A stretch of 64,000 bases of DNA, taken from positions 52,578 through 116,577 of the forward strand of contig CAWHXP010000008.1 in the NCBI GenBank assembly GCA_963833425.1, written 5' to 3'. The first letter of the stretch is position 1. Each line of letters starts with the position of its first letter. Both the position numbers and the translations under genes were made by a program. The notes under the pieces are model-generated. The model was not told where the DNA came from. It searched no databases and saw nothing but the letters and a program-made list of their open reading frames with translations. Positions 2,462-58,615 of this stretch are shown piece after piece. Origin of the DNA: an uncultured Methanosarcinaceae archaeon. GTDB taxonomy: Archaea; Halobacteriota; Methanosarcinia; Methanosarcinales; Methanosarcinaceae.

Positions 2462-3952
2462 AGTCTCCCTCTCCTTGTAATGTACATTAAAAGCATTTTT
2501 AATATTATACAGCCTACACTGTTAAATTTTGTTGCGATGAGGTACGCAGTTTACAGGGGCATAATGTTAGTATCAATAACACTTGAGCCCCTACAAGACA
2601 GCTTAAAGTATTTCACAGTTATGAATAATTGAGGGTCATATCACTCATTTTCAGCAGCTTAGTATGTTTCAAACCTAGACTTGAACTTTTTCTATAACAT
2701 ATCACTACCATAATATAAAATATACTTATTTATACTGTTTGCTCAACTCATTGAAGTTTTATACCAATTGAATGAAATCAAAAAGTGTCAGATTTTTCGG
2801 ATGAAATTGAAAGAAATTTGAAGATATTAAATTTGTCACAAGAGCTTCAGACTTTCATTTAAAATAATTTATTTAAAATTTAAAAAAACAGCAAGTGAAA
2901 TTTTTCAAGAAAAGTCTAAACGCATTTTTATGTGATGTTTATTAGTGTAAGAATTTTCAGTTACTTATGCATATAAGTTAAGGACGTAAGTGGTAAAAGA
3001 TTTAAATATTGTTTATTTTATTTTTTTCTACCTCAATCAAGGTTTAGTATCACAATCCACTCAAGCAAGGGTATGTGACTAACAGCTCTGGGTACAAAGG
3101 AATTATTAAAGATCAAGTATTTTAATTTGCCAATATGCTTTTTTTTTCCTGGGTTCCCTGATTTTCAACATAGTAGGTAGTTGCATTGGAAATCGTGCCT
3201 TCGTCCACAGTCCCAATATAACTCTATAATTCCACAGTTCAGGGTCCAAAATCCGTTTTTCAATTCTAGAGTATCCTATGATGATTTCTTTTGTTACGAT
3301 CTATCATAATAATCTGCATCATAAAATTAAGTGGTATATTTTTTATAGACTCAATAATTGCATGATGTAGTTCCATCATATCACGCAAAAATAACTTAAA
3401 ATATAAATTAGTTAGCCAAGAATGGTTCTCTGAGAATTTTCAATACCCTGTGCAACCTACGGGATAATCGACTGAGATAAGGTAACAAACAGAAATCAAA
3501 GGTAAATATTTAGACAGAATTCCCTCAATGAAAAAAAACGGAATTTCCTGATATTAAAAAAATTAAAAGAAGTAAAATATGCTGAAACTATAACTGCATA
3601 ATTTCTACTTTACTAAATAATTTTAGGAATGTAAATATAATACTTTCTGCTTTGGTTGAATGTACCAGGGAAATAGGGATCAAAAATCTCTTCTTCAAAG
3701 ACATTTGGTATGTTATCTGTGGCTCAACTAATCAAAGGGAGAAGTGAATTAAGTGTAAAGTGAAGAGCTTTCTACTTAATTTGAGTCGGATTTCTTATTT
3801 TTTTCGAATTTTTGGACTTAGCTAAAATTACAACAGAACATTTATAATTTTAGAAATTATATTCGGTTCAATTTATATGTCTAAAACCAGAATATTAATC
3901 ACTCAAGCATAGGGTTTTTAATTTTTAGTTGAGACAAAAAGGAGATTATTAT

Positions 3953-4684
3953 ATGAAAATAACAGTGTTTAGCGGAAGCCATAAAGGCAAAAAAGGAAAT
4001 ACTCTCAGCATGGTTGAAGAATTTTTGAATGGGGCAGAAGAAGCCGGGGCAGATACTGAGAATATCATCCTTGCCGAAAAAAATATAAAATATTGCAAGG
4101 GAAAATTCGAATGCTGGCTAAATACGCCTGGAAAATGTGCTATTCATGATGATATGGAAGACTTAATTCAGAAATTTTTGGAATCTGATATTGCTGTTTT
4201 TGCGTGCCCTGTATATTTTGACAATGTTCCGGCTGTAATGAAAAACTTCATAGACAGACTTACACCCATCCTTTTACCCCATTTTGAGGAAGACGAAAAA
4301 GGTGAGTATAGGCATGCAAAACGCTATGAGAAATTACCGAAAATAGTTGCTATTTCGAATGCTGGTCTACCGAGCCAGAAAAATTTTGAAGTTGAAAGCC
4401 TTTTTTTCAGGAGGCTCGCAAGAACTTTTCACACAGAACTTATTGGCGAAATCTACAGAGGAGAAGGGGAAATTTTCAGGGGCAAAGACAACATCATTCT
4501 GAAGCCGTTACTCGGAAAGTATAACAAATATCTCAGAAGTGCTGGAAAAGAGATAGTCGAAAGCCATAAAATTTCAGAAAAAACAAATGAAGGTCTCGAA
4601 AAATTTATTTTGCCGCCAAGTCTGTATATAAAATTCGGAAATGATGAATGGGATCGGATGCTTGAGGAAGGTAGGGTAGATTGA
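3953..4684 (+). CDS. Flavodoxin-fold / NADPH-dependent FMN reductase family protein (iron-sulfur flavoprotein-like)
   Basis: MKITVFSGSH..KGNT, Cys cluster CKGKFEC-x6-C..DDM, and PVYFDNVPAVMKNFIDR. A GGAG RBS lies before ATG 3953. Confidence 0.85.
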   Translation: MKITVFSGSHKGKKGNTLSMVEEFLNGAEEAGADTENIILAEKNIKYCKGKFECWLNTPGKCAIHDDMEDLIQKFLESDIAVFACPVYFDNVPAVMKNFIDRLTPILLPHFEEDEKGEYRHAKRYEKLPKIVAISNAGLPSQKNFEVESLFFRRLARTFHTELIGEIYRGEGEIFRGKDNIILKPLLGKYNKYLRSAGKEIVESHKISEKTNEGLEKFILPPSLYIKFGNDEWDRMLEEGRVD

Positions 4685-4996
4685 GAGGAACTGGTAAAGA
4701 TAAAAGAAACTTGGTAGGGATAACCACGAATAGATGTGAAAAATTTAGATGTTAGTTAATAGATAAATTTGTGGCATCCTTTATGAGATAAAGCAAGAGT
4801 AAACTGTTTTAGTCCCCTTATAACATCCATTTTATGGATGTGCCAGATGCAAAATTTATTTGCTTATTTGGCTATTATTAATTCGTTGAAAGTTAAATTA
4901 ATTTTTTGGCTACTGTCGCATTAAGAAAATAGATGTCATTCATCTGTACAATGTGAGAAGTGTGTTGAAACATTTGAGCTATTTTTTAAGCATCTT

Positions 4997-6757
4997 TTAA
5001 TTAACTTTCGGTATCCCTTCGATCAGATCTTCCAGACTTTGCTTCAAATAAGGAGCATTGCTTCTGTTGATCAATTCCTGACAGGTCTCAATTGGATTCC
5101 CAACCATTACAATTGCTCCTTTTTCGATCATCACAGCCCTATGAGCAATTTCCCGAACGAAATCCATGTGGTGGCTCACAAGAACGATGGTCGTGTTGAA
5201 GCGTTCATTGATCCTTTTTAAGGAATTTGTGACGTCCCTGAGAGTTATAGGGTCTAGGTCTCCAAAAGGTTCATCAAGCATTAAGTACTCTGGAGATGTC
5301 GAAAGGCTCAGGGCGATAAAAGCTCTAACATGCTCGCCTCCGCTGATCTGGGAAGGAGTCTTGTCAAGGACTTCCAATGGTAGATCAAGTGCTTCAAATA
5401 CTGGCTTTGCATAGGTATCAACATCATTTAACGGAACTATGGGAAAAAGTTCAAAATAAATGGTATCATTCAGATTCAACTCTTGCAATGCAGTTGCTTT
5501 TTCTTCTTCGGTCGTATCTAACAACCGATATACATTATCAAGGGTCTCATCAGAGAGCCCCATTTCCATGGCTTTATTCCTCGAGTATTCTATTGCATCT
5601 TTCTTTTTGATACTTAACCTAAATCGGATCTGGTCCCTAACTGTGGAGTTAACTGACATGGAAAATTCCTGATTCATGATGCTCATAATCCTACGGAGTT
5701 CCATGCGCTTCTTGCTATATTCGGTAACTTCTACCCAGTCTCCGTTACAAAAATAATCTACAGTACCGCTATTTGGTTTGACAAGCCCTTCAATAATTTT
5801 CATAATTGTTGTTTTTCCGGCTCCAGAAGAGCCTATAAAAGCTAAAATCTCTCCCTTGTAGACATCGAACGATAAATTTTTGATGTTAAGGACTTCTCCC
5901 ATCCGGATGATGGAATAACGTTTTGAAATTTCCTTTACTCTCATGCAAACTTCCTTATTTTCGAGCTTCTTAAGATCTTTCTTTGGTTTCATATCTCTAA
6001 GGAAATTTTTAAGTACACCTAATGGTTCTCCTTCGGCTACTATTTTCCCTTCTTCAAGAAAAATCAGCCTGTCAGCAAGATAAGCATGAATTTCCGGAAG
6101 GTGAGAAACTACTATGATTGCTATTTTCAAGTTAGCTTTTAGGTTTTTAATTATATCAAGTACTTCCTGCTTGGTATCGGGTCCTGTCATCGTTACTGGT
6201 TCATCCAAAAGAAGAACTTTTGGATTCGCAGCAAGTTGCCTTGCCATTACAATTCTCTGTTTTTCCCCTCCACTCAGGAGGTTAGTGGAGTGGAGAGCTT
6301 TGTGCTCGAGGCCAACAAGTTTCAGATATTTCATTGCCTCTTTGAAAAGTTCATCATAATCATTAGTTATACTGTGTGGCAAATGTTCATTATTTGGAAG
6401 GGCTTCATGCCCAACTTTAAGGTAATTTAGTTTCCGGATTACATTTTCAATTGCAGGTCCGTTCCATAGACTGAAATTTCGCTGGAAATGTATTGCTGTT
6501 ACGTTTTTCAGGAATTTTTCTCCTTCAATACCGGAATTTGGGGTTACAATTTTCCCATCTACTTCCACAGTTCCTTCTTGAAATGGTTCCACCCCACGAA
6601 TGATGCGAAGAAGCGTGGACTTTCCGCTCCCGCTTCGTCCTGTAATCCCAAGGATTTCACCATCCTCCACTTTGAGGTTGATATGGTCCAATACTTTCAT
6701 GCTTTTGGAACACACATCATAAATTTTTACTAAATTTGAAATCTTGAGCATAATCAC
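4997..6757 (-). CDS. Dual-cassette ABC ATPase, methyl-CoM reductase component A2 (AtwA)-like paralog
   Basis: Two Walker A motifs (GRSGSGKS, GSSGAGKT) and signatures LSGGEKQR / ISGGEHVR. AtwA-like segments ARQLA.NP, LDEPFGDLDPIT..VT.S and VSHHMDFV. No transmembrane partner nearby. Confidence 0.8.
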   Translation of the reverse strand: MIMLKISNLVKIYDVCSKSMKVLDHINLKVEDGEILGITGRSGSGKSTLLRIIRGVEPFQEGTVEVDGKIVTPNSGIEGEKFLKNVTAIHFQRNFSLWNGPAIENVIRKLNYLKVGHEALPNNEHLPHSITNDYDELFKEAMKYLKLVGLEHKALHSTNLLSGGEKQRIVMARQLAANPKVLLLDEPVTMTGPDTKQEVLDIIKNLKANLKIAIIVVSHLPEIHAYLADRLIFLEEGKIVAEGEPLGVLKNFLRDMKPKKDLKKLENKEVCMRVKEISKRYSIIRMGEVLNIKNLSFDVYKGEILAFIGSSGAGKTTIMKIIEGLVKPNSGTVDYFCNGDWVEVTEYSKKRMELRRIMSIMNQEFSMSVNSTVRDQIRFRLSIKKKDAIEYSRNKAMEMGLSDETLDNVYRLLDTTEEEKATALQELNLNDTIYFELFPIVPLNDVDTYAKPVFEALDLPLEVLDKTPSQISGGEHVRAFIALSLSTSPEYLMLDEPFGDLDPITLRDVTNSLKRINERFNTTIVLVSHHMDFVREIAHRAVMIEKGAIVMVGNPIETCQELINRSNAPYLKQSLEDLIEGIPKVN

Positions 6758-34018: not shown

Positions 34019-34914
34019 ATGCAAAATCAAGTACCTCAATCCGAGTTAGACGCGCTGCGCACTGTCATTTCACAAACGGGGGTGCGATGGACGGCAGGCG
34101 AAGCAAACATCTCCCGGTTCACCACAGAAGCCTGCAGGCAACTTCTCCTTTCAGCACCACCAACCCGCGCAGAACCCTCAAAGTGAAAGATAGAGCCCTT
34201 GGCACTGTCTCACCTTCCACTATTTTTGATGCCGACCTCATTCGACTGGCGGAATGTGAACGGTCAAAGTTATGTGACGCCTGTAAGAATGCAGGTTGGA
34301 GGGACTTGTGTGGCGTTTGCTAACACGGGCGCTGTCGAATCCTGCTTTCTGCGCTCCGAAACCTTCCACGACAACGACATAGACCTTTCAGAACGCGTCC
34401 TTTCCGCGTGCAACAGTGGGCTCTACCCGTGTCCTAGGTCGCCCGAATTCCTGCAAAGCACTGGACTGCCTTCAGAGGCGTGCTACCAGTGGAGCGCCAG
34501 GGCCCGTCGGCTGGAGGCAAGACCAAACCTATAAAGTGATTGCACACAACTACTACAATCCCTTCCGATCGGCGATGTCAAAACGTTCATAACTAGCTTC
34601 GGGCCTATCGTCACCGGCATGAACTTCCTGAAAGACTTCTTCAATTACAACGGCGGAATATAGACGGGAACCACGAATCCATCGACAGTTTTCACGAAGT
34701 GCTCGTTGTTGGCTACGACGATAACTCCCAGTGTTTCATCTGCAAGAACAGTTGGGGTGAAGACTGGGGAGAAAGCGGATTCTTCCAGATTGTCTACAGC
34801 CAGTTTGGGCAGTGTTCAGAGGTCGGCATCGGCGGGCAGAACAACGTTCCGATCCATACCGACACGAAGAATATCGGCCCTTGGGAGAAGTTCACAGCGG
34901 TGCTTGCGCACTGA
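34019..34914 (+). pseudogene. Papain-like (C1A) cysteine protease pseudogene on a GC-rich insert
   Basis: PTSFDWRNVNG.SYVTPVR.Q, TCVAFA, DLSE, GPIVTGM...DFF.Y.GGI, HEVLVVGYDD, ICKNSWGEDWGESGFF. Several frameshifts and stops. Confidence 0.88.
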
Positions 34915-49481: not shown

Positions 49482-49570
49482 TAGAATTTCGATAAACTCC
49501 TAAATTTTTCATATGCTTATAAATGAAATAGAAATGACTCGAGAAAATTAGAGGTTCATCGAAATCTTCT
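49482..49570. mobile_element. ~90-bp MITE-like element, copy 2
   Basis: Inverted ends AGAATTTCGATAAACTCC / GAGGTTCATCGAAATCTTCT. Confidence 0.6.
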
Positions 49571-50566: not shown

Positions 50567-51146
50567 GGTCCGTTGCAAAAACTTCAGAATAAGCATGTAA
50601 ATCTATAAGTAATAAATAAAAGTCAAAAGATCCGAGGGAAATATACCAACATTATAAAATTATACTAAACAATTGTTTAATATATTTGACTTCATTAAGA
50701 ACAGAGTAATTTAGATTATTGACTTGTCTTTTTTAACCATATTCATAGCTTCAATTCCTTTTAAAGTCTTACTAGCAGAACTAAAAGACTGAAAGCCTAA
50801 CATTGAACGAACTATCCGCTTTATAGATCTATGATCTTGTTCTATAATGTTACTCAAATACTTTACTTGTCTAATTTCAACATTTTTAGGCAACTTTTTT
50901 TCAATCTCAGGAGAATATTGATGTAACCATCTCATGATTATCGTATGGTCGACTTTTATTCCTCTTTCTATCATCATTTCCTTTAAATTTCTATAGCTCA
51001 ATGGGTATTTTAAGTACCATCTTACATTAATAGGATAATTTCTCCTTCTTAATGCTCTCCCATTTAAAGAAATTAGATAGCATATTACTATCTTTGGTTT
51101 TCTTTTATTCTATTGTCCCTTATAAAAGATTTTTTGCAACGGAACC
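50567..51146 (-). mobile_element. IS6-family element with internal deletion
   Basis: TIRs GGTCCGTTGCAAAAA (50567) and TTTTTGCAACGGAACC (ends 51146). The transposase lacks its DDE core (YSPEIEKK fused to LPKNVEIRQVKY). Confidence 0.93.
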
Positions 51147-51688
51147 GAATTTATTATTATATATCATTTTAAAGTCCAATTTAGTTCGACTTTTTTGAGA
51201 TTTTGTGTCCTAGCGATTTTTGCTTCTATGTTCCAGTAGTTATTTAATATTTTCTAAATAAATTTCAAGGATGAAATTATCTCTACGCACTCTTAATATA
51301 CATAAAAAAATCTATAAGCTAAGACCCGAAATCGAATCGGGATGACATGAACACGAAATCCATTGCATAATTTTTCCAGCATACTAGCATTCATGCTCAG
51401 CATTTATTTCTGGTTTTAAGCCGTTGATTAATGCCCTATGTTCCGTAGACTCTCCAAAAATATCCAATTATATCGCAGACCTCATCTAAATTTTGTTTTA
51501 TGAATATCATGAAAAAAGTATTTAAGCTTGTGCGAAAAACATCTAGTTTTCCAATATTTGTCATTTATGGTTGTATGAGTTTTTTAATCCACTGCCTTAT
51601 AAGATAATTTTTTTTGGACTTCTGCGGAAAGTGAGTTGTATAAATTAGGTTATTTCTATTTAGGTAGAATCTTAAAACAGCATTGGAT

Positions 51689-53126
51689 CTATTTCAGATT
51701 CAATTCTCTAAAAACCTCCTCGCGTATTGCTAAAAAATCAGGGCTTGTTCTATCCCTTTTCCTGGCTATGTGTATATCAATAATTTTTTTCGTTTTCCCT
51801 GGGCCAGCTGTCATGATGACAATGCTATCCGCCAAAAATACTGCTTCCTCAATATCATGCGTAACAAATATGATCGTCTTTTTCTTCTCTTGCCATATTC
51901 TTTCAATCTCATTCTGCATGGTCATTCGTGTCATTACATCCAGGGATCCAAAGGGCTCATCCATTAAAAGAACAGAAGGATCAACCGCCAAAGGCCCTTG
52001 CAATAGCAGTTCTCTGTTTCATGCCTCCGGAAAGTTGGTTTGGATGATGATTTTTGTAATTCGACAATCCGACCAGTTTGAGGTATTCCTCAGCTATTTC
52101 CAGACACTTCTTCTCATCAAATCCCTTTGACTCCAGTCCCAGTTCCACGTTCTTGATTACTGTTCTCCAGGGAAGCAGACCAAAATTCCGAAATATAGCA
52201 ATCCGATCAATTGAAGGTTGACCAACAATATTTCCATTAATCTTAATGGCTCCAATATTTGCCTTGATTGTGCTTCTTTCCGGCAATCCGAAAAGACTAT
52301 CAATTGCTATTGAAGATCCAAAGGTACTGGTCCAAGCAAAGGCAAGACCACATCGCAGGAACTGCTGCATGACATTTTTCCAATCTCCATCAGTTCCTGT
52401 GGTTGTTCGATGAAGGGCTTCGACTACTTCGTGATAAGCGCTAACAGGGAGAATATCTAAATCCTTCCATACCTTTATCCGTTCCGATGTCGTAAAAGCA
52501 TGCAATGTTTTATGTTTATCAGGTACTGTTCTAGATAAATCTTCGAGAAGGACATCAGCAACCTTCGATGCGATTGATTTTATTGTTTTTCCTTCGATAT
52601 CGATACCTAATTGAGCAGCAGATTTTCTTAATTTTTCTTCGCCTAGAATTTGTAGATTTAGGCTGCCTTCGGCAGCAGCCTTTAGGGTAAGCATTATTTC
52701 GCGTCCCCTGGCACCATGGGCGGCCGCTTCTGCAGCACCCCATCTTAATAGGTTTCTTGCAACAATAAGGTCTGCATCCGCTCCGCATACTCCTCTAGGG
52801 CTTTTCTTGGTGATCCTGCAAGGTCCGATATTACAATTGCGACAGCATATACCTGCCATACCAAAGCTACAATGTGGCTTCTGCTGATCAAAACGATCAA
52901 AAGGAGTTTCACAGCCGAGCTTTTCCATTCGTAATAGCAGTTCTTTAACTGCGGGATCAGGCGTGTTCTCTAATACATCTCTCTTTGTCGGGAAACTTTT
53001 TTTATATTCAGCTACAGATTCTGTATAATCAGCGAAGTTCCTCCCACCATGATGATGGTTTTGATGACTATATTCATCCTTATGAGAATGGTCGTTGCAA
53101 TGGTGGCGAATCTCAGGAAACTTCAT
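51689..53126 (-). pseudogene. cooS: Deletion chimera: N-terminal ~half of anaerobic Ni-CODH (CooS) fused in frame to the C-terminal part of a TauB/NrtD-type ABC ATPase
   Basis: CooS motifs QQKPHCSFGMAGICCRNCNIGPCRI, GVCGA.AD.IVARNL, AAAHG, ALHRTTTG.D. These are followed by ABC motifs LLPWRTV..NV, LSGGMKQR and, after a frameshift, MDEPFGSLD, FVTHDIEEA. Confidence 0.9.
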
Positions 53127-53263
53127 TGTTTAATGACCTCTATTTGTACGTTTTACTGAATTCAGTTCAAAGCACCTTCATATTTGGGCAGCTTTCTACA
53201 GAATATCCAAGAGGAAAAATGATCTAGTTGAAATTTGTCTTATGTAATAGTTTGCATAGTTTT

Positions 53264-53279
53264 ATTCACAATTGTGAAT
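53264..53279. promoter_or_regulatory. Perfect 16-bp palindrome ATTCACAATTGTGAAT (putative operator) upstream of cooS
   Basis: Identical copy at 55694. A minus-strand TATA (TTTAAATA) lies at 53305-53312. Confidence 0.75.
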
Positions 53280-53873
53280 TAACAACAGCTATACTTACTG
53301 CCAATATTTAAACCTCCATTTCAGGGCAAAATTTGCCAGAAAAATTCTTAACATCGATGTTTTGGGAGAAAGTGTGTTTGTTCTGGAGTTATAGGCTATT
53401 TATAAAAGACATTTGACGATATTAAGACAATAAATCCTATAAAATGACCAATCTTGACCCTAAATTTCATGCTAAATTAAATTTTGTAAGTAAGTGCAAT
53501 AACTATTCTCCATGAGGTCGAGAAAATGCACACGTTTTAAAGTAAACATTTTGTATTCTAAACGTCAACTTTCGATTACAATTTTTACATTATGTGATTT
53601 TTACTTAATTTCTACCGCGAAAATGAAAATTTCAGAATTTTTACATATGTTTTTGACAACTTGATTTTCTATAGTTTAGAAAAATGCAATTTTCTACCGA
53701 TTACATACAGATTAAATGCAAAAAAAGATATAGTCCCATGGGCCATGCATCAACCTTTTGATGAACGATTGCTGTTATTTTTGATCTTTGATGTCCCTGA
53801 TAGTCCAAAATCAAAGCAAATTAAAACCGGAAATGAAACATACGCATCCATTATCCAGAAATTTTATAGTGTT

Positions 53874-54875
53874 TCAGTCCATCGTGAGGTTAGAAACATT
53901 TAATCGACTCATTATTGGGCCACTTAGAACGGATGTAACCATTGCCATGATAACCAAAGCCACAAACAAGCGGTCATCGATAAGTTCTGCATCCCTGGCT
54001 ACAGTAGCTAATATCATTTCCATAGCGCCCCTCGCGTTCAAAGCAAAACCTATGATTGCAGATTGTCTCCATGACATCCTACTTACCCTTAGGCCAAGCG
54101 TCACACCGAGCACCTTACATATACATGCAACTAAAAGAACTGCAAGCACCAGGTTTAGGTCAAATGATGCTACGAAATTCGTCTGTAGCCCAATTGAAAC
54201 AAAGTAAAGTGGGGCAAAAAAATACATGACGAACTGATAGACTATCTCATGTGCTTCATCCAGTTTCTCTAAGTTCTGGGAGAATGCAAGACCTACCAAA
54301 AAAGCGCCAAAAACAGCATGTATCCCTATACATTTACTGTTGCTGCCCCAATAATTATCATCCCCATATCTGTATTCAGCAAGTCTAGGTCCATGAGAGT
54401 TCTCGCAATAACCGGGAGAGCTGATATAGACAACGCTGTTCCCATGAACATCGCGGAAAAAAATGTTTCGCCCTTAAAATACCCCTCCCACATATTTGGA
54501 AACATGACGACCATACCGAAGCCAAATGTAAACGGTAGCAATATAACCCATTAAGCTAGCCCATGCTATGTGAATGCCGCTGTTCCTAACGAGCTTCAGG
54601 TTCATTTGCAGACCTGCAATGAATAAAAAGAAAAGAATACAAATTTGGATTAGTGCATCTCTGCCCTCAAAAACAGTACCAGATGCTGGAAATAACCATC
54701 GATAATTACTTGGACTAAGCCATCCAAAGACAGTCGGACCGAGAATGATGCCGCCAAAAAGCTCGCCCAGGACCGCAGGAAAACGAAGACTCCTCATTAC
54801 ATGACCGCACAAAAATGCTACGAAAAGCATCACAGAGATCTCCAGGAAAAATATTACCATATCCATTGGTGCCAT
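53874..54875 (-). pseudogene. Cation/H+ antiporter (CPA2/KefB-like) pseudogene
   Basis: PAVLGELFGGIILGPTVFG, LFFLFIAGL, ALSISALPVIARTLMDL, FAPLYFVSIGL, NARGAME. Split into three ORFs with an internal deletion. Confidence 0.88.
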
Positions 54876-55308
54876 ACTGAATTATCCTCATTACTTAAAT
54901 TATAAAAGAATATGTCCAAGATTGACCTATAGCACTCGAAGATGCTAATTAAGTAAACATTTTTGCATCCATAGGTTTGTCTAAAAAACACATGGCTGGT
55001 CCATAATAAGCTATATATCAAAATAAATTTTGACCAAAGCAAAGCATTTTTATTAGGCTATTCGTGAAAGGTCTTGGAAAGATATCCAGATCCTAGAATC
55101 GACTTTCTGTAGATCTTTCTTCAAAAATAGTCTTTTTCACAATTATTCCATCAACTTAATTATCTTATTTTTAATTTAATTTAGATCTGTAATTTGGATT
55201 ATCACGTTTGAGTTAATTCCAATTTTTCTTTTTGTAATCTTTCTCATCCAACTTTCAACAGATGTACACAAAAATGCCATTTCTGGTATACTGAATAATT
55301 ATAATAAA

Positions 55309-55638
55309 TCATTCTATCCAGGGCTCAAGTCCTTTTTTCCTGAGATAGTCGTTAATAGCTTCATGGACTGCTTCTTCTGCAAGCACTGAACAGTGCATTT
55401 TTGCCGGAGGGAGCCCATCAAGCGCTTCTGCAGCTGCTTTATTTGAAAGATTTCAAGCTTCTTCCAGAGTTATTCCTTTGATTAGTTTGGTTGCCATACT
55501 GCTTGATGCGACTGCAGCCACGCATCCCAAAGTCTGGAACTTCACGTCTGCAATCCGATCTCCTTCTATTTAGAGGAATATCTTCATTACATCTCCGCAT
55601 TTTGCTACGGGGGTTGGAGCATATATATTTTGACTCAT
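55309..55638 (-). pseudogene. iscU: IscU/NifU Fe-S scaffold pseudogene (N-terminus missing, two in-frame stops)
   Basis: Manual translation: MSQNIYAPTPVAKCGDVMKIFL*IEGDRIADVKFQTLGCVAAVASSSMATKLIKG.TLEEA*NLSNKA.AEALDGLPPAKMHCSVLAEEAVHEAINDY. All three IscU Cys are present. Confidence 0.88.
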
Positions 55639-55693
55639 TTTTATATTTGAAATACAAGAGCTTCTCGATAACTATATATTTAACATAAGTTAA

Positions 55694-55709
55694 ATTCACA
55701 ATTGTGAAT
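55694..55709. promoter_or_regulatory. Perfect 16-bp palindrome ATTCACAATTGTGAAT between iscU and cysK
   Basis: Identical to 53264-53279. A minus-strand TATA (TTTATATA) lies at 55734-55741. Confidence 0.75.
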
Positions 55710-56002
55710 CAATTATAAATCGCGTTATGTAGCTATATAAAGGTAGCTTAGAATTGCAAAATTTCCGGCGAGTTGAAATGCTTAAAATAAGCTTTGGAAG
55801 CTTTCGATAATCCACAAATTTTGTCAAATGCTTACAAATGATATATAGATGATTCGTATAAATTAGAGATTATTGAAATCCTCCGTAATTATGCTTGAGA
55901 AAGGTTTGAGTGAAAAATTATGAATTACTGGAAATTCTGGATATACTCTGGAATGAATTAAATTATATGAATCTGGAAAAAACTGCAGGAGAAGGTAATT
56001 GT

Positions 56003-56929
56003 ATGGGAAAAATATACTCCGACATAACATGGACAATAGGTAACACACCGCTTGTTAGGTTAAATCATATGACAGAAGATCTGTATGCTGATGTGGTAGT
56101 CAAACTGGAGTCTTTTAACCCACTGGGAAGTGTAAAGGATAGAATTGGATTGGCAATGATCGAAGGAGCTGAACGCGAAGGGAAGATCAAAAATGGTACT
56201 ATCATAATTGAGCCAACTAGCGGTAATACGGGTATAGCACTTGCAAGCGTATGTGCTGCCCGTGGCTATAAGCTTATATTGGTCATGCCTGAGACAATGA
56301 CTCTCGAAAGGGGAAAGCTACTGAAGGCCCTGGGAGCAGAACTCGTCCTGACACCCGGAAGCGAAGGAATGAAAGGAGCAGTCAGTAGAGCAGAACAAAT
56401 GGCTGCAGAAGATCCTATGCTTTATTTTATACCTCAGCAATTCCAGAACCCTGCAAATCCGGAAGTCCACCGCAGGACGACTGCCGAGGAAATATGGAAA
56501 GATACTGACGGCAAGGTAGATGTGCTTGTAGCAGGTGTGGGAACAGGGGGAACCATTACAGGTGTTGCAAGCGTCATCAAAAAAAGGAAACCTACTTTTA
56601 AGGTTGTTGCAGTCGAACCTGCCGAGTCTCCAGTTCTCAGTGGAGGAAGTCCGGGACCCCATCGAATCCAAGGCATCGGTGCAGGGTTCATTCCTGATGT
56701 ACTCCGGCTTGACCTGGTTGACGAGATAATTAAGGTAGATGGAGACGATGCCGCTGTTACTGCCAAAAGATTAGCAAGAGAAGAAGGTATCCTTGCAGGC
56801 ATATCTTCAGGTGCAGCTATATATGCGGCATTACAAGTTGCTTCCAGGGAGAAAATGATCGGGAAAATGATTGTTGTAATCTTACCGGATACTGGCGAGC
56901 GTTATCTGAGTACCCATCTGTTTGATTGA
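56003..56929 (+). CDS. cysK: Cysteine synthase A (O-acetylserine sulfhydrylase)
   Basis: [69 protein letters not shown]. Start is probably ATG 56003. Confidence 0.97.
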
Positions 56930-58615
56930 TCTATTTGAAATTGAAGACAAAGCTGGGAAATAATACCATAGTATGGGATAACATAAAATTTGAAGCTAAG
57001 TTCCTTGCAGCAAATGCGTTACAGCCTGTAAATATGCGATTTGTCCTTGATGCGGCTAAGACAGAGTTTATGGAGACAGAAAAGTCTGTTATTGAAGCCG
57101 AATTTCAACGAAAAAAGAGAAGTGTGAAGGTATGGAATGACTTACATAGACTGACCAATGATGAAGACCGTTATGTGAGGTCTATTGCTACCGATGCTTT
57201 AGGCTCTGCGTTTTTTCAAGTGCCAGATAAACAGCAGGCATGGAATAGCTTACATAGACTAATCAATGATAAAGACTGTTATGTGAGGTCTAGTGCTACC
57301 TATGCTCTTGGTTCTGCGTTTTCTCAAGTGCTAGATAAACAACAGGCATGGAATGACTTACATAGACTGACAAATGATGAAGACAGTTTTGTGAGAACAT
57401 CCTCAAATCATTCTCTTGGAAGAGTTTCTATACTTAAGGCTTCCCAGGCAGAAACATATGAAGATTACAAAAGGGAATTGGAAAAGGCAATTAAATTTTT
57501 CGAAATTGCAGCACAGGAATCATTTACAAGTAGTAACCCATCAAAATTTTGTCTTTCTTTTTATCGATCATTTCATGCAATAATTTTCAAAAAACAAGAA
57601 GCTAAAGAAGAAGTGGACAAATATCTGGAAGAAGCTAAAGCTGCGATTAAAGGCTCAGAGAGCAAGAAACAGCTTTTTGAAGCTGTTGAAAACCTAGCAG
57701 AGGCATTAAAAGAAGTCCATAATTTAGGAAAACTGGACTTGCAGGGAATAAAAGATGAACTAAATTTCTATAGGAAATACTGTGATCGTGCTGCAGAACT
57801 AATGAAAGATACTGATGAAAAAGCACCGTTCGCGACAAAAGTTCTGAGAAAAGGATTACCAATCTTAGGCAGAAATCTAAAAGGGCTTCTAGAAGAGATT
57901 CAAGAAAAAGCAAAAGTATTTAGTGAGCAAACAAAAGGAACACAATTTGAACAATTGGGCAACGAATTAAATAAGAGCAGTCAGTTTCTTTTACAGGTTA
58001 GAGATCCATTAGGATTTAAAAAACAGGTGAATATTATGCAGAAAACATTGAAAGCTATTTGTTCCCAGTTCCCTGAAGGTCAGAAGGGTGAAGCATGCGA
58101 CTTGCTTGAAATGATATGCAGAGTCATCAATTGAAGATAAAATATATCTCATAAATAATATATTAAGTAAATTTCCCTCTCAATTGAATATGACAGCTCA
58201 TTTAAACATAGTCGAAAAGAAATTAGAGAAATTGAGTTGCATAAGCTACGATGTTTCCAAAATCAAATTATATTTAGCTAATCTCGTTATTCCAAATCTT
58301 GATTTTACAAAAAGAGAATTGAAAAAAAATACTGAAACATGCAGTCTAAACACGCTCGCTATAGATAAATTGAGTTCACAGACGAAGGAACTTAATGATC
58401 TGATAGAAGATGGGCTTAAAAAATTCGATGAGATGAGAACTTTAATTGATGAAATTCCAAAAAATAAAGACATCCAACTATTTTATGATGGGTTAAGTGA
58501 ATTAAGGCAATCGAAATCAGATACGTTATTGCAAAGGTATTCAGCAATAATTACATTACTTGAATTCGGGGAGAAAATTTTGTATTTGTGTATTCAACAT
58601 TATCCATTTAATTAA
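56926..58615 (+). pseudogene. Methanosarcina-type HEAT-repeat protein, N-truncated and frameshifted
   Basis: Repeats QQAWNDLHRLTNDED..VR..A..ALGSAF. A frameshift at ~58120 links ORF 56926-58134 to 58184-58615 (AESSIEDKIYLINNILSKFPSQLNMTAH). Confidence 0.75.

Follow-up and report, generated by a model that had tools for sequence, protein, structure and literature searches.

The stretch of DNA analysed here (the window) comprises 64,000 nucleotides from an uncultured Methanosarcinaceae archaeon (GenBank assembly GCA_963833425.1, contig CAWHXP010000008.1, positions 52,578 to 116,577) and contains two copies of a perfect 16-bp palindrome, ATTCACAATTGTGAAT, one of them upstream of a remnant of the CO dehydrogenase gene cooS joined to an ATP-binding cassette (ABC) ATPase gene, and the other between a remnant of the iron-sulfur (Fe-S) assembly genes iscS and iscU and a divergently oriented, intact cysK (Table 1). 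An exact-match search found these two copies and nothing else in the window, as an earlier note on this DNA had claimed, and base composition predicts 8.3e-5 copies per window by chance; the third match at up to three mismatches is a single three-mismatch site at position 2611. Perfect 16-nt palindromes occupy four positions in the window in total, both copies among them. The relaxed pattern TNACAATTGTNA with one mismatch gave six matches in the window against 6.1 expected, and among these the two known copies are the only credible sites. Homology between the flanks of the two copies stops after about 25 nt, at 88% identity, which bears out the earlier statement that the flanks are not otherwise related. 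The dyad symmetry is perfect over 16 bp, within the size range of about 14–18 bp looked for in the operator of a dimeric repressor.

Each copy lies behind a minus-strand TATA box at close to the 25-nt distance given in the earlier note, and, with transcription starts placed by TATA spacing, both copies sit between TATA box and coding start and over the expected transcription start, a position that, as had also been suggested, would fit a repressor. The promoter of copy 1 carries in addition a TTGCC element, which recurs at the identical 12-nt spacing from the TATA box in palindrome-bearing Methanosarcinaceae promoters (loci L038, L095, L114, L115, L037, L059 and L034). Over 75–84 nt this promoter (53263–53345) is 75–80% similar to Methanosarcina tRNA-Cys promoters (L038, L095, L115), and it is comparably close to the palindrome-bearing promoters of L022, L034, L037 and L059; the layout common to such promoters is TTGCC, 12 nt, TTTAAATATT, about 24 nt and the palindrome. 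TTGCC could be a second protein site, or it could reflect common descent of duplicated promoters. At copy 2 its counterpart is TTGCA, 13 nt from the TATA box.

The flank of copy 2 (55662–55710) aligns with the palindrome of the cysK promoter in L014, L066 and L122, and the cysK promoter flank CTCGATAACTATATAT is common to the window and Methanosarcina L014, L064, L066 and L122. On the cysK side a plus-strand TATA-like box precedes the palindrome, and in the Methanosarcina cysK promoters of the same four loci CTCGATAAC-TATATA is kept upstream of the palindrome, at gaps of 13–24 nt. These alignments mark copy 2 as a putative shared operator of two divergent promoters, that of iscS on the minus strand and that of cysK on the plus strand; beyond what the earlier note had proposed, it is predicted to serve cysK as well, through this second, conserved plus-strand TATA-like box.

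Table 1 Features around the two palindrome copies, in window coordinates
Feature	Position	Strand	Remarks
tRNA-Cys pseudogene	51317..51388	-	Downstream of the cooS'-'ABC remnant; aligns with tRNA-Cys of L034, L115 and L038
cooS'-'ABC ATPase fusion pseudogene	51984..53126	-	Next gene downstream of copy 1, with its start codon 137 nt away
Palindrome copy 1, putative operator ATTCACAATTGTGAAT	53264..53279		Exact match; 25 nt downstream of the minus-strand TATA box
TATA box TTTAAATA, cooS-side promoter	53305..53312	-	8/8 to TTTAWATA; gap to palindrome 25 nt
TTGCC element	53325..53329	-	12 nt upstream of the TATA box of the copy-1 promoter
iscS'-'iscU fusion pseudogene	55309..55638	-	Start 55 nt from copy 2; two in-frame stops
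TATA-like box ACTATATA, cysK-side promoter	55671..55678	+	15 nt before the palindrome
Palindrome copy 2, putative operator between the divergent iscS' and cysK promoters	55694..55709		Exact match
TATA box TTTATATA, iscS-side promoter	55734..55741	-	8/8 to TTTAWATA; gap to palindrome 24 nt
cysK, intact	56003..56929	+	Pfam PALP

The exact 16-mer was scanned in one genome per species (185,579 species, 596 Gb), with only perfect 16-mers counted, and at least 124 matches were obtained. Since a uniform-composition estimate predicts about 140 chance matches for a 16-mer in 596 Gb, the total count is uninformative, and what matters is the concentration of matches in a few methanogen orders. By record title, the 124 matches listed divide into 69 archaeal and 55 bacterial ones; a methanogen name stands on 67 of the 69, from Methanosarcinales, Methanotrichales and Methanomicrobiales, and the archaeal matches listed span 55 assemblies, counted by contig-accession prefix. 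The names among the 67 are Methanosarcina, Methanosarcinaceae, Methanolobus, Methanomethylovorans, Methanothrix/Methanotrichaceae, Methanoregula/Methanoregulaceae, Methanospirillum, Methanoculleus, Methanofollis, Methanocalculus, Methanomicrobium, Methanomicrobiales and Methanobacteriota. The bacterial matches listed are mostly, as judged by eye, terminator-like hairpins between A and T runs, without a sulfur-gene context. Some bacterial matches have flanks that recur in related genera (L013, L105 and L116 in Methylophilus; L045, L090 and L104 in Roseovarius/Pelagimonas/Paracoccaceae; L024 and L087 in Clostridium; L058 and L094 in Bacteroidales), and these represent separate conserved sites that have no relation to the regulon of the methanogens.

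Open reading frames (ORFs) of the 69 archaeal loci were called as simple ORFs, clustered, and named by Pfam and NCBIfam, with flanks of 3 kb or, for 44 of the 124 loci listed, of 300 nt only. Of the 47 archaeal loci with 3-kb flanks, 42 have a sulfur-handling gene or a tRNA-Cys gene no more than 700 nt from the site, compared to 3 of 33 bacterial loci. The largest group of neighbours, a single blast cluster of 53 ORFs in 36 archaeal loci, comprises IscS/SufS desulfurases with IscU, together with SepCysS; it is followed by ThiF/MoeB (13 loci), FdhD (12), a LarE-like sulfur transferase (TIGR00268; 11), ThiS/MoaD (10), O-acetylhomoserine sulfhydrylase (8), TtuA-like proteins and LipS2-like radical SAM proteins (7 each), CysE (6), and CysK, NadA and ThiE (5 each). 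MoaE, MetX, ThiI, ThiM, ThiN, CysRS and SufBD are also found among the neighbours. In L026, an 880-aa fusion of a PAPS-reductase-like PP-loop domain and a SufS-type cysteine desulfurase (3203–5842, plus strand) directly follows the palindrome, divergent from iscS.

A gene for tRNA-Cys is the other recurrent neighbour, accounting for 23 of the 25 tRNAs in the archaeal loci. Twenty of these 23 carry the site, or a variant with at most three mismatches, within 80 nt upstream, in 19 cases at a gap of 4–19 nt, and six of the 20 upstream sites are variants for which the exact scan did not select. In L018, L075, L065 and L053, tRNA-Cys heads an operon of tRNA-Cys, SepCysS and O-acetylhomoserine sulfhydrylase. 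According to two papers (PMC5424206, PMC5688128), methanogen cysteine is made on tRNA-Cys by SepRS and SepCysS, so that tRNA-Cys is itself part of the cysteine pathway. Judged by these neighbourhoods, the predicted regulon is wider than the earlier note had proposed, in that it includes tRNA-Cys and SepCysS and, with them, tRNA-dependent cysteine synthesis. In the passages of PMC7585200 that concern it, M. acetivorans iscSU2 clusters with methionine and NAD genes, a grouping that matches L063, and these passages mention no regulator of iscSU2.

Two further arrangements were seen around such sites. L035 (Methanoculleus palmolei, CP137641.1) has three tRNA-Cys genes in a stretch of 3 kb, two of them with the variant GTTCACAATTGTGAAC 5–6 nt upstream, and SepCysS and O-acetylhomoserine sulfhydrylase follow the tRNA-Cys genes. 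In the Methanosarcina loci L059, L034, L037 and L022, the full layout of TATA box and palindrome is followed immediately downstream only by small ORFs without a family, and the products of these promoters may be small RNAs or small proteins; in L034 there is a tRNA-Cys at a distance of 548 nt.

The sites themselves cluster and show a regular spacing from TATA boxes. Additional sites with at most two mismatches number 30 in 267 kb of archaeal flanks, compared to none in 205 kb of bacterial flanks, and across sites positions 3–14 (TCACAATTGTGA) form a conserved core, with variation at positions 1, 2, 15 and 16. Gaps between a strong TATA match and the site in the archaeal loci peak at 25–27 nt (18 cases) and 21–22 nt (7 cases), with a small class at 13–15 nt that corresponds to the Methanosarcina cysK promoter, whereas in the bacterial loci the distribution is flat. 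A second, weaker site stands directly behind the TATA box in tRNA-Cys promoters of Methanolobus and Methanoregulaceae and in Methanosarcina iscS promoters, and tandem sites are present in 13 aligned iscS/C1 intergenic regions of Methanoregulaceae (C1 is introduced below). The palindrome is an element of defined sequence and geometry, conserved at orthologous promoters and associated with functionally related genes, as is looked for in an operator.

One protein recurs beside the site as a candidate regulator. C1, a cluster of ORFs of about 103–116 aa that has no family assignment, adjoins the site in 22 of the 69 archaeal loci (in five of these it was seen as an antisense ORF only), in Methanosarcina, Methanolobus, Methanotrichaceae, Methanoregulaceae, Methanoculleus and Methanomicrobium. 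In Methanoregulaceae the C1 start codon lies 47–80 nt from the palindrome, and C1 heads an operon with a larE-like gene and fdhD that is divergent from iscS, iscU, thiF and thiS; in Methanosarcina, where C1 is flanked by iscS and cysK, there are sites to either side of it (L012, L014, L064, L066). The protein contains a predicted Cro/C1-type helix-turn-helix (HTH; ..SQxxxAxxLxIAPSAVSQYLSGKRG..) and conserved cysteines: of 134 aligned family members, 86% have Cys6, 84% Cys88 and 83% Cys91, and 49–55% have one or two C-terminal cysteines, while in an 89-row alignment all three of the former are invariant, its rows having been selected for them. The earlier note had suggested looking for an Rrf2, ArsR or TrmB regulator; instead it is this small, putatively Cro/C1-type protein with conserved cysteines that co-occurs with the motif, and family scans found no Rrf2-family protein among the ORFs near sites or in the window.

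A profile search placed 714 representatives at 50% identity in the C1 family (E ≤ 1e-10), under generic names such as 'transcriptional regulator' or 'HTH domain-containing', among them proteins of M. acetivorans, M. barkeri and M. thermophila. A look-up of ten representatives likewise returned generic names, with Methanocorpusculum and Methanonatronarchaeum among the sources, and ESM Atlas gave generically named HTH_3 clusters only. The AlphaFold model of C1 is confident and consists of five helices (predicted local distance difference test, pLDDT, 85.8), for which Foldseek found no match in the PDB better than E 0.69; the C1 profile, compared to PDB sequences, matched a lambda-repressor-like protein best (E 0.0099) and otherwise generic HTH proteins of the Cro/HigA/Aca1 type. 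A homodimer prediction scored 0.05 against a mark of 0.42, which speaks neither for nor against dimerisation.

From this pattern we infer C1 as the binder, repression as the effect, and the kind of signal that is sensed. We consider it likely that the palindrome is a high-affinity operator at which transcription is repressed, and that its regulon, shared by Methanosarcinales, Methanotrichales and Methanomicrobiales, serves cysteine synthesis, the mobilisation of sulfur and Fe-S supply, with C1 as the protein most likely to bind the site. The site would cover roughly +1 to +18 where it lies about 25 nt after the TATA box, and roughly −10 to +6 where it lies 13–15 nt after it; because a dimer at that position would stop RNA polymerase, we take it to be a site of repression. 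It is established that archaeal repressors which bind at the TATA box or behind it block the recruitment or start of RNA polymerase, and a C1 dimer bound at the palindrome would act in the same way. C1 would also regulate itself, and its cysteines, the three invariant ones and one or two more, may sense Fe-S, persulfide or thiol status, such that C1 would let go of the DNA and the regulon would open when sulfur or clusters run low; both the direction of this response and its ligand are guesses by analogy. Within the window, the operator would stand before the dead cooS'-'ABC unit and between the dead iscS'-'iscU and the live cysK.

The genes around the window copies are largely in decay. The fusion after copy 1 matches Pfam Prismane (positions 1–210 of 513) and ABC_tran, and NCBIfam TIGR01702 (positions 3–244 of 621; N-terminal 300 residues, CooS-type CO dehydrogenase) and a taurine/nitrate-type ABC ATPase. 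Its CooS part runs in frame into the middle of the ATPase, the remainder of which lies in another frame (51689–52018), and since cooS and the ABC ATPase gene are joined in frame, an internal deletion will have fused both genes. Downstream of it, the tRNA-Cys pseudogene has a ruined anticodon loop and is not called by ARAGORN, and no palindrome lies directly upstream of it; a fragment of an insertion-sequence (IS) transposase of the IS6/IS240 type follows beyond (50714–51109). The iscS'-'iscU fusion begins with a 13-codon start, MSQNIY-APTPVAK, that matches the IscS N-terminus (in Methanosarcina, ..TIYMDNSATTPVRKE), and continues as IscU from CGDVM, the iscU part being 79% identical to residues 32–129 of L014 IscU. 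The earlier description, with cooS/ABC genes after copy 1 and an isc side divergent from cysK, holds in outline, but the decay goes further than it said, the 'isc unit' being this dead fusion. In line with its remark that the sites remain perfect although both operons are decayed, both copies match 16/16 and both fusions are dead; cysK is intact.

The window CysK is 84–90% identical to CysK of L066, L014 and L007, in full length or over the part available. At the DNA level, cysK shares 78–79% identity with the Methanosarcina loci and, over 337 nt, 92% with a metagenome-assembled genome of an uncultured Methanosarcinaceae archaeon; the window Mch protein is 67–69% identical to proteins of Methanococcoides, Methanosalsum and Methanolobus, and 91% identical to a metagenomic protein. 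The gene cysE, which comes next after cysK in Methanosarcina L014 and L066, is absent from the window. In its place a HEAT-repeat ORF (56926–58131, plus strand), with three 108-nt tandem repeats at 57128–57451, abuts cysK, and the same HEAT protein is found beyond cysE in L066. In the lineage of the window, iscS and cysK have one site in common, and C1 is not located between them. A deletion of about 2 kb that would have removed the C1 gene from the window was considered and withdrawn, the iscS start codon being kept 55 nt from the palindrome.

The window as a whole is gene-poor and decayed, with 55 non-overlapping stop-to-stop ORFs of at least 80 aa in 64 kb and a G+C content of about 34%. 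Other wreckage includes IS6/IS240 transposase fragments (224–891, besides that at 50714–51109), a split papain-type peptidase (34187–34911) and a split Na+/H+ exchanger (53877–54881). A 70-nt direct repeat with 77% identity, containing the TATA-like CTTA(T/C)AAATGA, lies at 49487–49556, just after a DUF790 gene, and at 55802–55871, between copy 2 and cysK.

Several points weigh against the proposal of a sulfur regulon under C1. Two of the three local targets in the window, cooS'-'ABC and iscS'-'iscU, are pseudogenes, and tblastn found neither the C1 gene nor that of C14, a second candidate described below, in the 64 kb. The scan, with its at least 124 matches, was made for perfect 16-mers, which makes the picture of the regulon partial and the invariance of the primary site across loci a matter of construction. 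The list of sulfur genes was drawn from the same archaeal loci that were counted, with names from independent libraries, and in 5 of the 47 loci (L021, L022, L048, L051, L059) none of the listed sulfur genes is found within 700 nt. CooS adjoins the motif in none of the 124 loci listed, so that its membership in the regulon is putative; the co-regulation proposed by the earlier note is supported for Fe-S assembly and cysteine synthesis by the enrichment given above, but CooS and the ABC importer adjoin the motif in the window only. One of three C1 members reaches the curated Pfam HTH_3 cut-off of 23 bits (L036, 24.2 bits; L046 has 20.6 and L066 18.8), and C1 could be a regulated neighbour instead of the binder. 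The whole case for the regulon, moreover, is a comparative one, built from sequence.

One alternative, which we regard as improbable, is that the palindrome is a real sulfur-regulon operator bound by another protein, either C14 or a regulator encoded elsewhere, with C1 only a co-regulated member. C14 is a winged-helix protein of 66–73 aa whose gene follows the site at a distance of 139–142 nt in L033 and L076, while in L056 and L065 it lies no more than 2.2 kb from the site; adjacency alone does not prove that C1 binds, and in 47 of the 69 archaeal loci no C1 was seen, many of these having flanks of 300 nt only. These four loci are, however, the only ones among the 69 with C14, and the named proteins among its best 120 relatives are all from Methanoregula, Methanosphaerula or Methanomicrobiales, on the Methanomicrobiales side, and none from Methanosarcina, although distant relatives could escape such a listing. 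C1, by contrast, stands beside the site in every major site-bearing lineage, and Pfam scans of the ORFs near sites gave no recurrent DNA-binding protein besides C1 and C14. A different reading, which is compatible with the proposed regulon and which we find rather doubtful, is that the window copies are unused relics of a decayed ancestral regulon and are perfect only through the recency of that decay. The dead cooS and iscSU genes, the tRNA-Cys pseudogene, the absence of cysE, C1 and C14 from the window, and the gene-poor surroundings with their IS6/IS240 fragments are all in keeping with it. On the other hand, cysK beside copy 2 is intact and close to its orthologues, both copies are complete and have 8/8 TATA boxes in a surrounding promoter that is only 75–80% like its relatives, and the gene for the regulator may lie outside the window. 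With so much decay around them, the two copies are perhaps live only for cysK, or are recent relics.

The remaining alternatives concern the nature of the element. As an RNA element, the palindrome would form a 6-bp hairpin at the 5' end of the transcript, including the tRNA-Cys leader, and control stability, processing or translation. With a TATA box 24–27 nt upstream the site would indeed be transcribed within the first 20 nt or so, and a hairpin was predicted in all four leaders folded; it is weak, however, with a centroid energy of −4.7 kcal/mol and z-scores of 0.03 to −2.1, and Rfam gave no match for the site at E ≤ 1. Variant sites show 47 one-sided changes that break a would-be RNA pair as opposed to 8 compensatory ones, and the central AATT, which would be the loop, is conserved like the stem (kept in 38–40 of 41 sites). 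Furthermore, the site in the cysK promoter, 13–15 nt after the TATA box, lies partly upstream of the expected start, and the second sites abut the TATA box. This pattern of variants fits a DNA site that would be read by a symmetric protein and not an RNA stem, and we judge the RNA reading very unlikely. That the palindrome is repeated by chance or is a mobile-element end is scarcely credible: IS6/IS240 fragments are present in the window and the 16-mer also occurs in bacteria, but its chance expectation per window is minute, the flanks of the copies are not repeated beyond about 25 nt, the site stands at orthologous promoters in 55 archaeal assemblies, and the bacterial matches are mostly terminator-like, with a sulfur-gene homologue nearby in only the few loci counted above. 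The terminal inverted repeat of an IS or of a miniature inverted-repeat transposable element is ruled out by the unrelated flanks together with the promoter location in these assemblies. The earlier note had named three outcomes that would speak against its reading, and none of them occurred: the motif is present at orthologous promoters (as in the shared cysK flank), it is enriched near functionally related genes, and it is not the end of such an element.

The regulon proposed here, with C1 as its most likely repressor, has partial parallels among known systems. IscR, an Rrf2-family protein of Escherichia coli and other bacteria, is encoded beside iscS, controls Fe-S assembly genes through promoter-overlapping sites, is autoregulated, and reports cluster status through cysteine ligands. 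C1 resembles it in standing beside iscS, in the sites over promoters of Fe-S assembly genes and in its conserved cysteines, and it would likewise be autoregulated; unlike IscR, it has a predicted Cro/C1-type HTH and not an Rrf2 winged helix, its operator has a different sequence, the promoters are archaeal TATA promoters, and the predicted regulon reaches tRNA-Cys, SepCysS, ThiF/ThiS, LarE-like proteins, FdhD and NadA. CymR, the Rrf2-type master repressor of cysteine metabolism, including cysK, and of sulfur assimilation in Bacillus and Staphylococcus, needs CysK as a co-repressor. Here, too, cysK and cysteine genes would be under a repressor, but of another protein family and with another motif, and the CysK co-repressor is a feature of CymR to which nothing comparable is shown here.

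Among archaeal systems, NrpR of Methanococcus maripaludis is a nitrogen repressor with palindromic operators (GGAA-N6-TTCC), often in tandem, that follow the TATA box closely and cover the transcription start. The sites described here are likewise palindromic, often tandem and placed after the TATA box, but they differ in their sequence, in the proposed protein family, and in preceding sulfur and not nitrogen genes. SurR of Pyrococcus furiosus, an ArsR-type winged-helix protein with a CxxC switch and the motif GTT-N3-AAC, controls hydrogenase and S0-reduction genes; C1 is similarly an archaeal, sulfur-linked candidate with a CxxC as proposed sensor, but its system is tied to cysteine and Fe-S supply and has another motif and, for C1, another predicted protein family. 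The Rex box, TTGTGAA-N4-TTCACAA, is bound by a bacterial NADH-sensing repressor. The resemblance that the earlier note had drawn to it holds for the seven half-site letters, which are the same but stand in the palindrome in reversed order and abutting; it goes no further than these letters, the neighbours being sulfur and not redox genes, and family scans found no Rex-type domain near sites or in the window. Compared to all of these, the palindrome system appears, from its sequence features, to be a repressor-operator regulon in which both the protein family and the motif are new and one member, a tRNA gene, is unusual. No publication on the motif or the regulator was found, and none on a regulator of methanogen sulfur assimilation, cysteine synthesis or Fe-S biogenesis, subscription journals and supplements lying outside the coverage of the search; the literal string TTCACAATTGTGAA gave no paper, and TCACAATTGTGA unrelated papers only.

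Hardly any other organisms require as many Fe-S proteins and sulfur cofactors as methanogens do. The motif supplies a concrete putative operator, together with a candidate protein that is found in the genetically tractable Methanosarcina acetivorans and M. barkeri, and the operator could be used as a sulfur-responsive promoter part for methanogen genetics. The predicted regulon joins both routes to cysteine (CysE/CysK and tRNA-Cys/SepCysS) with homocysteine synthesis, desulfurases and sulfur carriers, and also ties in those steps of thiamine, molybdopterin and NAD synthesis that need sulfur or Fe-S clusters. A transcription-factor site a few bases upstream of tRNA-Cys genes would be unusual in itself. 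In a bolder form of the proposal, which we put forward tentatively and with somewhat more doubt than belief, C1 would sense Fe-S clusters or persulfide and, as master regulator, govern sulfur trafficking in class II methanogens, setting desulfurases, IscU, ThiF-ThiS/MoaD, CysK/CysE, homocysteine synthesis, and tRNA-Cys and SepCysS through one operator. If this were true, tRNA-dependent cysteine synthesis would be throttled through the transcription of a tRNA, and a protein-controlled tRNA gene would lie inside an archaeal metabolic regulon.

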